Shown here: positions 39,800 through 51,160 of the stretch, piece after piece
How positions within the stretch are numbered: the first letter of the stretch is position 1
Layout: every line of letters starts with the position of its first letter
DNA from: Eledone cirrhosa
Lineage: Eukaryota
Direction: 5' to 3'
Assembly: GCA_964016885.1 (NCBI GenBank)
Contig: OZ024742.1
Span: forward strand, 33,356,001-33,420,000
Length of the DNA: 64,000 nucleotides
The notes under the pieces: model-generated
Told to the model about the DNA's origin: nothing
Databases searched by the model: none
What the model saw: only the letters and a program-made list of their open reading frames with translations
Program-made: the position numbers and the translations under genes

Positions 39800-40645
39800 T
39801 AATAATAATGAAATTATTGTGTAAAGTGCTCAGGTGCGCTACAACTCATCAAAGGTGTATGTATAGTACATAGAATAATACACAAATGTCAGGGAAGTAC
39901 ATGTGTGTATGTGTTAGCTGTAGTGTTGGCGGATCTCGGAAAGCATGGAGGCCTTAAAGTATGCAGTGTCTCGACAGCCAACAACTGATGCAGGTAGTTT
40001 GTTCCATGGAGGCCTTAAAGTATGCAGTGTCTCGACAGCTAACAACTGATGCAGGTAGTTTGTTCCATGGAGGCCTTAAAGTATGCAGTGTCTCGACAGC
40101 CAACAACTGATGCAGGTAGTTTGTTCCATGGAGGCCTTAAAGTATGCAGTGTCTCGACAGCCAACAACTGATGCAGGTAGTTTGTTCCATGCTTCAGCAA
40201 CTCTGAGTGTGAAAAAATGTTTCCGAAAGTCATGGGAACTGTGCTGTTTTCTTACTTTATGAGCATGTCCACGTGTGTTAGACACATGGAAATCAAAAAG
40301 GTACTCAGGGTTGTTGTTGGCAACATGGTTAACAATTTTGTGGGTGTTTACCAAGTCAGTTTCCAGGCGTCGGAGCTTCAATGTATCCATGCCCAGGGAA
40401 GCAAGGCCAAGGTGCTCAGAGTATGGTAGATCCCTGATGGAGGGTATTCGCTTGGTTGCACATCTCTGAACAGTTTCCAGGCGGTCAATGTTCTGAACAA
40501 GATAGGGGTTCCAGACTGGTGATGCAAATTCTAAGTGTGGTCGCACCATAGCCATGTACAGCCTTAAATAGATATCTGGAGAGCGGCTGACAAAGGTCTT
40601 GCTGAGTGATGCTAAGACACCCTCGGCCCTCTTGACAATTTTAGA
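39800..40645 (-). mobile_element. CR1-clade LINE 3' fragment with an internal 61-bp unit repeated four times
   Basis: LYMAMVRPHLEFASPVWNPYL..IDRLETVQRCATK, TRGH, FFTLRVAEAWNKLP; (TTA)n tail; tandem 39944-40190. Confidence 0.88.
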
Positions 40646-44205: not shown

Positions 44206-44367
44206 TTAATCATGATCAAACATATAAATTTCAATACACTAAATTATCTTCAGACTGCTATTGGGATTTTTAGTTTGTTATTGTAATTGTTGTTCTTGTT
44301 GAACAATAGATACATCTGTCAGGCAGACAGACAGAAAAGTGGGTAGGCAGGTTGATAGATAACTAGA

Positions 44368-44660
44368 TATATTTCTTTATTTGCCACAAGGGCGCACAAG
44401 AAAAGGGGACAAAATAAAGACACATGCCAGGGATTTTACATACAATCGTGTAAAAATATTGAAACAAACAAATTAAACAATCGAAATCCCCAATAGCTTG
44501 TGCCATTCCAGGTGTTTCTTGTGGATTTTTGAATCAACAGTATTGTGTCTTCATCCGCCTCCAAGAACCCTGCCAGAATCCACCAAATGTTAATGTTGGG
44601 TGGTATGTTTGAAATGTTATTTTTTGTGTTCTTTTTCCCATGTATGTAGGGAAAAAGGTG
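44368..44660 (-). mobile_element. Tx1/L1-related internally deleted copy (ORF1 fragment fused to 3' UTR)
   Basis: NIPPNINIWWILAGFLEADEDT aligns with ORF1 TILPSMDIWWVLIGFLDLDDDT of the 45-51 kb element; TTTATTTGCCAC and AAATCC(C/T)CAATAG are shared with its 3' UTR. Confidence 0.75.
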
Positions 44661-44965: not shown

Positions 44966-45559
44966 GAAACTAAGTCAAAATAAGCCCTGTGTGAATGAAA
45001 CATGGTTCTCTGACCTGATCTCTCTCAAAGGCAGAAGCTGTCCTATCCATGCTAGCGTGGAAAATGGATGTTAAATGATGATAATGACGATATAAGAGCA
45101 GATAAATATACATTTATGTAGAAAGATAGATAGATAGTCAGATAGATATATAGATAGATAAATAGATAAATAGATAAATAGATAACTTTCTTTTTATTTG
45201 CCACCAAGGCGTCAAAGAGTGGGACAAGTAAATGGGGGGAGTTTACATAAAAAGGCGTCCTCAATAAGGAGGAGGCAATAACAAAATATAAAAATATAAG
45301 ATATAAAATATAACAAAAATAAATTGAATAACAAAATCCTCAATAGGGAGGAGGCGCCTTGTGGGGTCACACACACCCCCGAAAAAGTGTGCAACCCTTC
45401 TCCTCAGGAGCACAGAGAGAGGGTGCTCCCTTGATCTTTCATCTTTCTCACCTACAGTCTGATGTAGAGTGAAGGCCCATTCACATGGGCCATTCTCGCC
45501 ACTTTCACCCATCTTTCATAAAAATGGCTGGGGTACAGCACCTCTCTCTCCATCCTGAT

Positions 45560-48500
45560 CCTTCTTCCGAAATGATATCGGAAGAAATGGACCAGTTGTT
45601 AGCCAGAGAGAAAGGTGTCTGACCTCAGTCCTTTCAGACGCGTCCACCATACAACCTCTTTCGCCATGGCTATTATGCACAGAAACACCGCCTCTCCTTC
45701 GTTTTTGAAGAGGGGAGGCGGCTTGATCGTTACAGTAGACTCGGTGGTCAACCGGATTGGTCCCACCTGTGACAGCAGTTGTTCGACATAGCCCCACAGA
45801 TCGGCAATGCCCGAGCACTGTACCAATGCGTGTGCAACAATTTCCTCGTTGCACCCGCATCTGGGACAGATCTTTTTTGAGGGGTCCCTACCCGGGCGCC
45901 CGTGTCTGTAGAGCCTTTCTCGAATTGGCAGAGCCCCTCAGTAGCACTGCCAGGCCAGGGACCTCTGGAAGTTATCTATAGGTCCCGGGCTGAATGTCCT
46001 ACCGAACAGGTTGGCCAGTTCGTTTTCCTCCATGCCTAGGGCTTCTCCGAGGGCGTCGTCGCACCTGCCAACCACCAGCCCTCTATAGAATAATGAGGCG
46101 GATTCTCCACCGACAGCTGGGTCCGCCTGCCAGAGAGCCGTGAACGCCTGGGCACAGTCGGTGTGCCAGGCGCCCAGTTTTCTCGGTCTTTGCTTGACCC
46201 ATGATTGCAGCTCGGTGAGCGAGCCAAGTCTGGGAAAGGCTCGCCTCACAAACGAGGCCCACACCAGTTGACTGGTGAGGAATACCTGGAGGTACCGCAG
46301 CCTTAATGCGTGTTTACGCATCATCAGCCACGGCATCCCCAGCCTTCTTTTCGAAGGGTGTTGACAGCAGATGGATCTCCTCACCATAGGAGCCCGCAAA
46401 GGAATTGGAAGAGTGCGCGCTCCATTTTGGCGAGCGTTTCCCTTAGGCAAGGCACGACGGTCAGGCGGTAGTAGATGACGGATGCTATATAAGTGTTCGC
46501 CACCTCCGCCCGACCTTTCAGGGACAGTTTGCACTCGGCCCACTTCTGGGTCAGTGCAAACACCCTGTTCGTTACCTCACCCCAGTTCTTCTCCACCTGG
46601 AGGTCTGGTCCGAACCAGACCCCGAGCAACTTCACCGGGCCCTCCATCCAGCACCCGACGACGCCATCGGAGGGCATCGATCTGCCCCTCCACGTGCCGA
46701 GTTGCAGACCAATCGATTTGTTCCGGTTCAGCTTAGCCCCTGTAAACCTTTCGTACTCCTCCAGTAAGGTGCCGATCGCCCCGATTTCCAAGGCCGTTGA
46801 CACCATTACTGTTACGTCATCGGCGTAGGCCGACACCGCTTTCCGCAATCCCGGTTCCAACGGGATGCCCTGCAACAACTCCAACTTCCGCAGCAGTGGC
46901 TCTAGAGTCATTACATACAGAAGGGAGGATAGAGGGCACCCCTGTCAGATGGACCGCGCGATTTCGAACGGCTCTGAGAGGTAGCCGTTCACCTTGACCC
47001 TAGAGCAGATGCGGCTGCTGTGCATGGCATTGATCCAGCCCCTGAAAACGGGTCCAAAGCCTACCGCCACTAGCACCGCATCCAGGTAACCATGGTCGAC
47101 CCTATCGAACGCCTTAGATTGATCCAAGTTGATCAGGGCCCCACCAAAGCCGGGTTCGTTCCCAACCCTCTCTATGATGTTTCACATGAGGTGGAGGTTA
47201 TCGTGGATGGACCTGGACGGGATAGCACATGTCTGCGCATCTCCCACCAGGTTGCCCACAACAAGCACCAACCTCTTTGCTAGCACCTTGGCCAAAATCT
47301 GTAACTCTGTATTTAGCAGAGTTATGGGCCTGAAATTATTTATATCGTCCCCCTTGTTCTCGTCCTTCCTCACTAGCGTGACTACGCCCTTGGTCACAGC
47401 ACAGGGAATTCTCCCGTTCTGTTGCCAGTTGCAGTAGACCGCTTCAAGGAGATCGAGGAACAAGTCCAACAGAGCTAGATATAGTTCGTATGGAAGACCA
47501 TCGAGACCCGGGGATTTGTGTTTGCCGCATTGGCTCAGCATGTCTCTATCTCAGTGGCTGAAATCGGCTCCTCGCAGGACTCCGCCTCCTTGTTCAAGAG
47601 ACGCGGCAGGCCATCGAGGTATGGACTGAAGACCACTTCCTCAACCGGCTCCCCTGCCTCTTCCGAACAATCTGGCAAAGTGCTTTTGAAAAGCCTCGCA
47701 CATCTGTTTAGGTTCAAGGATCACCCATCCATCCTGGTCTCGCAAAGACCGGATAGTGGATCTAGTCCCTCTTTTGGCCTCTGTCATGCGGGCCCAGCTA
47801 ACAGCTTTGGTCCCCTCATTTCCCAAAGCACGTATTTTGCTTCGGACGATGCAGCCTTCGTGTTTTGCGTCGAAGAACTGGCCCAGGGCTGTTCTCGATG
47901 CTAGCACGCTGGCCATGTCGCCGCTTCTAATTGCCTCTTCTACACTATCTACCAACTCCCTTTCCTTCCTATTTCTATTTGAGGCTAACTCCTTACTAAA
48001 TTCTATAGAGACTACTCTAATCTCTCTTTTGAGAGATCCCCACCACCTGTTGTTGACGATGGCGCCCGTCAACCGTTCCTTAACTAAAGTGCTAATCCGG
48101 TCCCTGTAAGCTTTACTTGCCAGTAAGGACAAGTTGAGCTTCCAGTAACCGCGTCACTGTCTATGCGTTCTTTCAAGGTTGACCATGCAGGTCACTAACT
48201 TGTGGTCTGAATAGCCAACCATGAGCATTTTTGGACAACTTAAAATATCCTTATCCTTATTTCTAACTAAGAACCTATCTAGGTACAACCTAGATCATCC
48301 ACTGCGGTTTGCGCAAGTCCAGGTTGGCGCAGTCGGAAAATCTAGTCGATATCTATCGGCCAGGTCAAATCGGCCGATAAACCCTTTGAGGCTGTTACAC
48401 CCCTCTCTATCGAGACAGGCCCCTACGTAGTCCCAACGTGCATCTAAGATACCATTCCAGTCCCCCACTAATAGCAAGGAGCGGGACGTCCCTAGAAAAG

Positions 48501-48875
48501 TCTCCAGACGATGGAAGAAGTCCGGCCGCGTTGACACGAAAGGGCCATAGACGGCTACCAGCCTAAACGCTCCGCCTTCACCACTGCCAAGGTCCAGATC
48601 ACTAGTCGACCCTCCGGGTACAAATGTACCATCTGTGTTGTGAGACCCAGATGTTTTTGCAGCAGAACGACAACCCCACCCCCACCTCCGGGCTGACAGA
48701 GAGATGCGTGCATCTCAAAGTCATCAAAGGTGGGGGCCAGCTGTCGCACGTTGCTGATCCGGGCCTCACAAATAACCATCACATCTATACGTTGTGACCT
48801 GAGGTCATTTAGAAGCATTGCTTGCTTCCAAGTTGAGCCCAGGCCACGCACATTTAGACAGCCTACTCTTAGCAT
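45560..48875 (-). pseudogene. Tx1/L1 ORF2 (APE endonuclease, RT, C-terminal Cys motif), frameshifted
   Basis: MLRVGCLNVRGL, GDWN, SDH, KSPGLDGLPYE, NFRPITLLN, DQSKAFDRVDH, QGCPLS, AYADDV, LLGVWF; many frameshifts and small deletions. Confidence 0.9.
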
Positions 48876-48905
48876 AGCTATGTTGGTGGTGAAGAGAAAA
48901 GGCAC

Positions 48906-50612
48906 TTACCTCTCTGCGTCCCGGGTATCGGGCTGCACAATTTCCATGAGGGTGGGGGATGGGTTGTTGGGTGGTGTGGTGGTTTGTGGAAGTGTAGGGG
49001 CATCAGTGTGTTGTGTGGTTGGGGTGTTTGGAGTTGTGTGGGTATTTGCGGAGGGGGTGGGGAAATGTTTTAGGAGGACGCGGTTAATGGGCCCGACGCA
49101 GGGAGGGGGGGGGGGCACGTCCTCTTTAAAGTTGTTTTTTAGCATTTTGTATGTGTTCTCTGGGGCCTTAATCATTTTGAGGTGGGGGAAATCCCCTGCC
49201 TGGGTGAAGTTAGGCCCTTGGGTTTTTACTAAATTGTTGTTGTACACAATGTTTAGCAGTTTTTTATTTCTTGTGTTTATGTATGTGTATGCATGTTTTT
49301 GTTTTTGTGTGGTGTTTTTTGTTTGCTGTTGTTGTGTGCTCTTTTGTGTTGGTGTCTGTGTTATGTTTTGGGAAGGGGTTGTTTTCATTTGTGTGTCTGA
49401 GGTGTGTTTTCTTTTTTTTCTTTTGATTGTGTGGAAGTGCTCCTCCTTGTCTGACGACGAACGAGGGTCATCTTCCGTGTTGGAGGGGAGGGGTAGATTT
49501 TCGGGTTGTGTTTGCGGTGCAGGTGTTTTGGAAATTGTTTTTTCTTGAGTGGGGGGGATGGGTTGGACAGTGTTTTGTTTTGGTTTGAGCTGTGGTTGTT
49601 GTTTTTGTAGTGGTGGTTGTGGTGATTGTGTTGATTGTGCAGATGTTGGTGGTGGGGTTTTATTTTTAAGTTGAGGACAGACAGCCCTCAGGTGACCTCT
49701 GGCTCCACAGAGGTAACACGAGGGCCGCCTACCCTCCACGGTAATGTTAATAAAAGTTTGATCATCCAGTATGACGTGTTCAGGGATCTGGGCGATCCTT
49801 TCGGACCTCATTTGAACTACAAGTTCGAGGGCCATTCCACTGAACGCGTCACCCAATGCCTTTCCCATGGATATTAATGTGTCATCGTCTAGGTCCAGGA
49901 AACCTATCAATACCCACCATATGTCCATACTCGGAAGGATGGTGTGAATTTTTATTTTTTGTGTCCTTCTACCCATGTACATAGGGTAGAAGGTGTATGC
50001 GGTGGATGTGATCGGTTTTATTGACAGTTTTGCTGCCGTGTCCCTGTCATTCATGAGAATGGATAGACTCCCGTAGAGTCTATCCTTCTGAATGAATATG
50101 ATGTCTTTCGTGACATCTTTTAAAACCAACTCTATCTCACTCTGTGATGGTTGAGCTGGTTTTTTGCTTTTGTTTGAGACTGTCCTAAACATGACAGTGT
50201 TTAGGAGTCTCTGGCTTTTTAGTTCCGGGGGGGGGGGGGGGGTGGATTGAAAATGATCCATCTTCCCCGTACACTACGTATTTTTTGGCATCTGCCAGTA
50301 GCTCCTTAGCTTTGCTTATATCTACTGGCAGATAGTCGAGGGTTTTCCTTGCAGTCTGGGCGAAGGAAACCTTTTCCTTGTTTGTGTTGCTGTTGTTGTT
50401 GGTGGTGTTGTTGTTATTTTTGTGCCTTTATTGTTGTTGTTGTTGTTGTTGTTGCTTTCAGTTTCTTGTATAGTTGTGGCTACATCAAGTTGCCGGTCAG
50501 TAGGTGGCTGACCTCTGCCTTTGGCATCTGCTGCTGTGCCAGTGGAAGGGGGAAGCTGTGAGTTTAGCTTCCCTTTTCTTTCTTTGAATGTTGGTGAAGA
50601 TGCTTCAGCCAT
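48906..50612 (-). pseudogene. Tx1/L1 ORF1 (gag-like, CCHC knuckle) with two homopolymer frameshifts
   Basis: ATG 50612; KVSFAQTARKT..KAKELLADAKKY frame links the two track ORFs if an A-run (~50420) and the G16 run (50227-50242) are corrected; CYLCGARGHLRAVC zinc knuckle; TAA 48906-48908. Confidence 0.8.
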
Positions 50613-51160
50613 TTTTATCAAAGTAGGAAATTTTTCGAAAGATAACATTTTTTTTTTCACCACTATTTCGCCTAAAGGCGTAGAATAGTTTGAGAGACTG
50701 ACCAGATCAAAATTTGACCTGGCAGTCCCTCTACAAAATGGTACAAAAATTAAAGTTTACAGTTAGGAATTTCTATGGAAATTTAGGCAGAACTTACCCA
50801 GCAAGTTTCACGCGTGTGTCCATCCCAGATCGATAAATAGATAGATAGATAGATAGATACGTAGATGTCATTCTAAGATAGATAGAAAGCTAAAGGTGGC
50901 AGCAGTTCACCACTGACTGACCTGTTTGTCAGCACTGTGAAAGAGGTTAAGTTAATCTTTCCCAAGCTTGGAGGCTCATCAGTTTCGTTGGCATTAAGCA
51001 GCTGAGAGTATGAGACTTCTCCCTTAATAGGATGCCACTCTATCACAGTGGTATTAGTGGTACTAGTTTGAGCTGAGTCTACTGGAGGAACGGAAAATGA
51101 AGTGAATTGCTCAAGAACACAACACATCACCTGGTTCAGGAAAAGAACCCACAACATTAA

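Follow-up and report, generated by a model that had tools for sequence, protein, structure and literature searches.

Conserved donor motifs in a microsatellite-targeting Tx1-type LINE of Eledone cirrhosa: candidate U1 docking sites on unspliced RNA

The L2 LINEs of zebrafish have splice sites. In human L1, spliced retrocopies (SpIREs) account for 116 of 6,609 (1.8%), and the 5' UTR donor G98U99 is kept because it lies inside a RUNX3 site (PMC5860796). The donor of the Arabidopsis Ty1/Copia element EVD guards full-length RNA through U1, in a splicing-independent role against premature termination (PMC5580714), and an unspliced 5' splice site protects a transcript from Restrictor (ZC3H4/WDR82), better so near the start (PMC12211998). 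Introns occur in antisense TART RNA (PMC1636488). Literature searches found no report of splice signals in Tx1 elements; the excerpt of the account of the Tx1 elements Kibi and Koshi (PMC4494074) has nothing on splice signals, and that of PMC13282606 has nothing on splicing.

The window analysed here is a stretch of 64,000 nucleotides from E. cirrhosa (contig OZ024742.1, assembly GCA_964016885.1) and holds a LINE copy for which a first-pass annotation had proposed separately spliced ORF1 and ORF2 mRNAs, with only unspliced RNA regenerating the element. That observation is partly confirmed and its interpretation partly supported. Judged from genomic copies, the donors are kept, conservation of the acceptors is weak or lacking, and unspliced RNA is the form that is copied.

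Anatomy of the element and its relatives

The element, a full-length, decayed Tx1-type LINE copy, occupies 45186..50826 of the window (3' limit approximate) on the minus strand, as do all window features described below. It is bordered by (TATC)n target arrays at 50827..50860 on its 5' side and 45110..45185 on its 3' side. ORF1 (48906..50612) is frameshifted in the window copy and comprises 595 aa when intact; it is followed by a pyrimidine-rich spacer of 24 nt (48882..48905) and by ORF2 (45452..48881; 1145 aa when intact), which specifies an AP endonuclease, a reverse transcriptase and a zf-RVT region. Compared with an intact copy to which it is 91% identical, the window copy has four frameshifting indels and six in-frame stops in ORF2. 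The 3' UTR closes with an AATAAA signal (45193..45198).

Pfam searches of the intact-copy ORF2 returned Exo_endo_phos (5e-8), RVT_1 (5e-26) and zf-RVT (4e-5, below cutoff), and the order of N-terminal AP endonuclease, reverse transcriptase and C-terminal zinc region is that of L1/Tx1-type elements. A zf-CCHC match in ORF1 was weak (E 0.018 on the piece in the window) and was absent at a threshold of 0.05 from the intact 595-aa protein. The Tx1 label, a probable one, is drawn from the two-ORF anatomy and microsatellite targeting, the homologues found carrying no names. The LINE is present in high copy, genome searches giving 1269 first-look candidates for the head and 2166 for the ORF junction. 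In nearly all copies (TATC)n adjoins both heads and tails, and sister families adjoin (TTA)n. Family letters A to J are labels of this analysis.

Several further features were observed. One near-identical head of 165 nt was found on bodies merely 66-92% alike (heads L061-L096), and 3' UTRs are likewise shuffled among families, indicating frequent module exchange. Family I forms a head-to-tail array of at least 10 near-identical elements at a spacing of ~5840 bases (G000:C1:423365000-423421000). Elsewhere in the window, the minus strand carries a short 3' remnant of a different Tx1-like family, which has an AATAAA-TATC tail of its own (44355-44660), and an ORF (40076-40555) resembling what we take to be the C-terminal end of a CR1-type reverse transcriptase. 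An origin of the head from an snRNA or leader RNA was considered and set aside, Rfam giving nothing near the gathering score in the head.

Donor and acceptor motifs within and across families

The RNA of the element begins with a G at 50826. Its first 29 nt, a GC-richer segment here termed "exon 1" (50798..50826), are followed by donor 1, G|GTAAGT at +30 (50792..50799, GT at 50797), for which pairing within a local hairpin is predicted. The proposed intron is a T-rich segment of 67 nt (50731..50797) that is removed in no genomic copy searched. Within it lies a polymorphic branch-like hexamer, CCTAAC (50762..50767, branch A at 50763), and it ends with acceptor 1, TGTAG (50731..50735, AG at 50732-50731), at the foot of the first hairpin predicted in the 5' UTR, which lies directly 3' of the acceptor (50692..50731). 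Donor 2, AG|GTAAGT (48904..48911, GT at 48909), lies over the ORF1 TAA, and a further AG is found at 48879-48878. The first-pass annotation had placed all of these sites correctly. An upstream ORF was also observed: an ATG at +4 opens nine codons closed by a TAA inside donor 1 (50826-50794), so that in the window-element family both donors overlap a stop codon.

Conservation of the four proposed sites was examined in a head sample of 57 rows, in which the same genomic copy can occur twice, and in the top-matching copies of the ORF junction. Donor 1, acceptor 1 and donor 2 proved to be kept. The GT of donor 1 was intact in 55/57 rows and GTAAGT in 53/57, the AG of acceptor 1 was intact in 55/57, and the segment between them measured 67 nt in 56 of the 57; donor 2 was intact in all 30 top copies and 897 times genome-wide. 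The branch point did not hold as a family feature, CCTAAC being a minority form (15/57 rows) with other branch-point-like YTRAY words in some subfamilies. Acceptor 2, which the annotation had placed 2 nt before ORF2, is not a family feature at all: the other top copies (29 of 29) read CCAACATGGCTATG, that is, an ATGG ORF2 start, and the AG of the window copy is a private G>A change in the true ORF2 start codon (48878..48881, ATA in the window copy), from which the false acceptor arose. An AG does occur 7-9 nt upstream of the ORF2 ATG in families C and F; it is missing from A, B, D, E, G and H.

Lineage-level changes in the head columns numbered 0/6 for the donor, 0/5 for the acceptor, 14/56 for the intron and 5/29 and 8/70 for the exons. 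Conservation inside one family is, by itself, uninformative. Moreover, given that ~6% of shuffles of the window-element head yield a strong donor at +25..+50, donor 1 of one copy does not exceed chance; it is recurrence across families that takes the two donors beyond it.

For donor 2 this recurrence was observed as G|GTRRGT on the ORF1 stop in families A-J, whose endonucleases are 56-80% identical. It takes the forms GTAAGT, GTGAGT and GTAGGT, next to spacers that vary in length and sequence, and it persists while the stop swaps between TAA, TGA and TAG and the last codon between AGG and CGG. In a cross-family set the hexamer was kept in 28/30 loci. Among distant junctions from metagenome contigs such a hexamer was found in one of 34, away from the stop, the count following the removal of 46 of 80 loci whose match fell short of the ORF2 start. 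In the spacer of family F (L128-L149), GGTAAG pairs with a CTTACC farther downstream to make a local hairpin that covers donor 2, and TTAG stands 9 nt before the ORF2 ATG. A third candidate donor, TAG|GTGAG after the ORF2 stop, was rejected: it is not kept, many families reading GTTGAG and family G TAA.

Heads of sister families are mostly unalignable by BLAST and share a layout of GC-richer start, donor-like word, T-rich stretch, AG, hairpins and an ORF1 ATG near +210-230. The first 75 nt contain an exact GTRAGT in 5/10 head types, in 0/10 antisense sequences and in 1-9% of shuffles. The enrichment has p 5e-5, or 0.005 when collapsed to seven lineages (3/7); the 75-nt limit was set with the data already in view, and the head types may not be independent of one another. 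Three more head types match the donor at 6-7 of 9 positions (F1 and G1, AAG|GTTYGT; G2, |GTAAGG), and D heads switch between GTAAGT and GTGAGT, four D types having the donor at +63..+65. An AG 55-72 nt after the donor was found in 15/18 heads and 5/18 antisense sequences (shuffles 14-42%; Fisher p 0.009 or 0.064). A rule requiring donor, AG and branch point gave p 0.08-0.10, and several of the acceptors read AAG. A prediction made in advance, of a donor between +28 and +45 followed by an AG 55-72 nt further along, held in two of seven new head types. Donor 1 is absent from family E, where 7/7 heads (L339-L345) read GAAGT, and from the heads of family H (L251/L253). It is therefore dispensable, family E being very young (40/40 top matches 100% alike).

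Search for spliced copies, and breaks at donor 1

An mRNA spliced from donor 1 to acceptor 1 still holds both ORFs and, given that LINE RNA is the template, should leave spliced copies. Paired patterns with looser flanks matched 623 intact heads and no genomic copy precisely lacking the 67-nt segment; stricter paired patterns matched 148 intact heads and again no spliced one. In the sister family I the counts by paired patterns were 222 and 0. At the human L1 rate of 1.8%, ~11 spliced copies would be expected among 623, and the upper bound set by their absence is ~0.5%. Selection of heads by exon 2 alone led to the same result, the segment being kept in 27/27 that reach it (three more were truncated) and, in a second such set, in 24/24 (one truncated). 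Thus, of the ORF1 mRNA proposed from this join, the sites stand and the expected copies are lacking; their absence would also fit a pool of spliced mRNA barred from reverse transcription.

The other joins were likewise unrepresented. No genomic join of exon 1 to the ORF2 start was found, and the acceptor that the proposed ORF2-only mRNA would use exists only in the dead copy of the window. Apart from two tested acceptors, the donor-1 join pattern covered second exons starting with a base other than G. Genome-wide, the 12 variants of donor 2 (against 897 intact) were all point changes or small indels and none was spliced, in a search that covered joins other than those starting GTA plus non-A; among three GT-plus-non-A variants there was no donor-2-to-tail copy. 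Assembled contigs of one sample, from three runs of unstated kind, contained no joint in the LINE head, and no GT-AG joint over the element among 15 listed of 266, a result that carries no weight because contigs drop rare variants.

Three candidates for spliced or alternative forms were rejected. L027/L097, considered as a spliced ORF1-ORF2 fusion, is a deletion at a GG microhomology; L114, considered as a family starting after acceptor 1, is a truncated copy; and for L236, considered as a truncated spliced F1 copy, the full junction pattern matched nothing, in a count made without intact F1 heads as reference.

Seven heads have a base other than G after exon 1. Five of these reflect point changes or one-base deletions, and in the other two foreign DNA takes over precisely at donor 1. 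L411 (G000:C2 near 141068900, minus) joins LINE +1..+29 to the TTTAG|G position of a SINE in antisense orientation, and L412 (G000:C2 near 144985590, minus) joins LINE +1..+29 to foreign DNA, the source context of which was looked for and not found. Among SINEs in the loci examined, the position joined in L411 is preceded by AG in 22/49 copies and by TG in 25/49; the first foreign base is T, the usual base of the SINE being G, and no body of the window-element family lies within ~19 kb downstream of the break. The sequence of L411 fits reverse transcription of an RNA in which donor 1 was spliced to a SINE acceptor. A deletion at a microhomology of 2-3 bases would account for it too, and either reading takes one extra change. 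By a rough estimate, based on ~3 independent breaks over 30 x 1500 positions, well under 0.1 breaks would be expected at one given position among ~600 heads. Taken together, the two junctions suggest that donor 1 may at times be spliced to a distant acceptor beyond the ends of the LINE.

Interpretation and comparison with known systems

LINEs, being intronless, should be prey to systems that halt transcripts lacking a first splice site. It is with about even confidence that we propose, from the pattern of conservation and by analogy, that the two donor motifs act as U1 snRNP docking sites shielding the unspliced full-length RNA, rather than as intron ends for separate ORF1 and ORF2 messages. 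U1 at the promoter-proximal donor would block Restrictor-type termination and cryptic polyadenylation, for which mouse cells and a plant Copia element provide precedent. Donor 1 would thereby license early elongation, donor 2 would renew protection ahead of ORF2, and hairpin pairing of both donors and acceptor 1 would keep splicing rare. The combination of these three steps is, by analogy, likewise evenly balanced between right and wrong. Such a role would be a variant of the known use of U1 sites by retroelements. Against it, the predicted pairing of the donors would hinder U1 and would provide a structural cause for their conservation; the downstream AG in 15 of the 18 heads is more than pure docking needs; and donor 1 is dispensable in families E and H. 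The latter two families also serve as natural controls. A lineage keeping unused donors at its start and between its genes would show a LINE passing as a normal gene with its RNA whole.

A rather unlikely alternative is that the donors are by-products, their letters being kept for RNA hairpins, stop-codon context or a promoter factor. Structure predictions are consistent with the first of these. Donor hexamers are predicted to be paired at >=0.7 in 13/16 heads (no shuffle baseline applies to this figure), and the loop of the predicted hairpin over donor 1 takes TGG/TGA/TCG variation. The acceptor AG lies in or at the base of a predicted hairpin and, in D heads, TAG>CAG is matched by CTA>CTG on the opposite arm, so conservation of this AG is explicable by structure. 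In families C, G and H the spacer and the beginning of the 3' UTR are predicted to form a helix with donor 2 inside it (6/9 elements, -40 to -46 kcal/mol; the other three, -30 to -33), values that have no shuffle baseline. Pairing in the window-element family is weaker (-24 to -26 kcal/mol), its spacer pairing better with G tails. The stop codon within both donors, the lack of donor 1 in families E and H and the precedent of the human L1 donor kept through a RUNX3 site (PMC5860796) also favor this explanation. However, letters complementary to U1 are required by neither a hairpin nor a stop, and G|GTRRGT nevertheless persists where the stop is swapped and the surroundings do not align. Donor 1 ranges from +29 to +65 from the 5' end, unlike a fixed core-promoter element, and the two genomic breaks exactly at donor 1 also count against this explanation.

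More doubtful still is a retrovirus-like split, in which the 5' mini-intron, alone or together with removal of ORF2 (donor 2 to an AG at the ORF2 stop), would be spliced in an mRNA pool for ORF1 protein and only unspliced RNA would be copied. The spacing of donor, T-rich stretch and AG is consistent with it, being 66-69 nt in many of the 15 heads, and in the window-element family joining donor 2 to the AG of the ORF2 stop would rebuild AGG-TGA, the unchanged end of ORF1. Zero spliced copies is what strict exclusion predicts. Nevertheless, the acceptor statistic is weak at the p values given above and several acceptors are AAG; the ORF2 of family G ends in TAA with no AG there; and the three GT-plus-non-A variants included no donor-2-to-tail copy. 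We know of no mechanism that excludes spliced RNA from copying in the Tx1 clade. In human L1, splicing in the 5' UTR does not keep RNA from retrotransposing in cis (PMC5860796), which also argues against the split. In its fullest form, a real 5' UTR intron of 56-69 nt, rebuilt in unalignable heads of this microsatellite-targeting group, would act with a donor able to drop ORF2, spliced RNA serving as message and unspliced RNA alone being reverse-transcribed; we consider this improbable. If true, a LINE would separate mRNA from genome in the manner of a retrovirus, overriding cis-preference, and if the sites are spliced after all, zero spliced copies among ~850 heads would mean that the LINE tells mRNA from template.

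The full model of the earlier annotation, an ORF2-only mRNA joined from donor 1 to the AG 2 nt before the ORF2 start, has next to no likelihood: an AG is present in the window copy and, 7-9 nt before the ATG, in families C and F, but its absence from 29/29 other copies and from six families, together with the lack of any exon 1-ORF2 start join, refutes it at the sequence level for the window-element family.

U1 docking by unspliced donors can be set against the described systems. Kibi and Koshi, of the Tx1 clade, resemble the window LINE in their two ORFs, AP endonuclease-reverse transcriptase and microsatellite insertion, the targets here being (TATC)n or (TTA)n (PMC4494074). Human L1 is alike in having a conserved 5' UTR donor in an L1-clade LINE; its RNA is mostly unspliced, as is proposed for the window LINE, and donor mutation lowers RNA (PMC5860796). 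The two differ in the frequency of spliced copies (1.8% and 0/623) and in the donor itself, which in human L1 is explained by a RUNX3 site in one head lineage (PMC5860796), whereas here donors recur in unalignable heads and the ORF1 stop carries a second one. Protection from Restrictor, described in mammalian-cell reporters rather than in LINEs or Eledone, resembles the docking proposal in that a start-proximal unspliced donor suffices (PMC12211998). EVD shares with the window LINE a conserved U1-type site where the structural gene ends; it differs in being an LTR element, one for which splicing and a subgenomic shGAG RNA have been demonstrated (PMC5580714).
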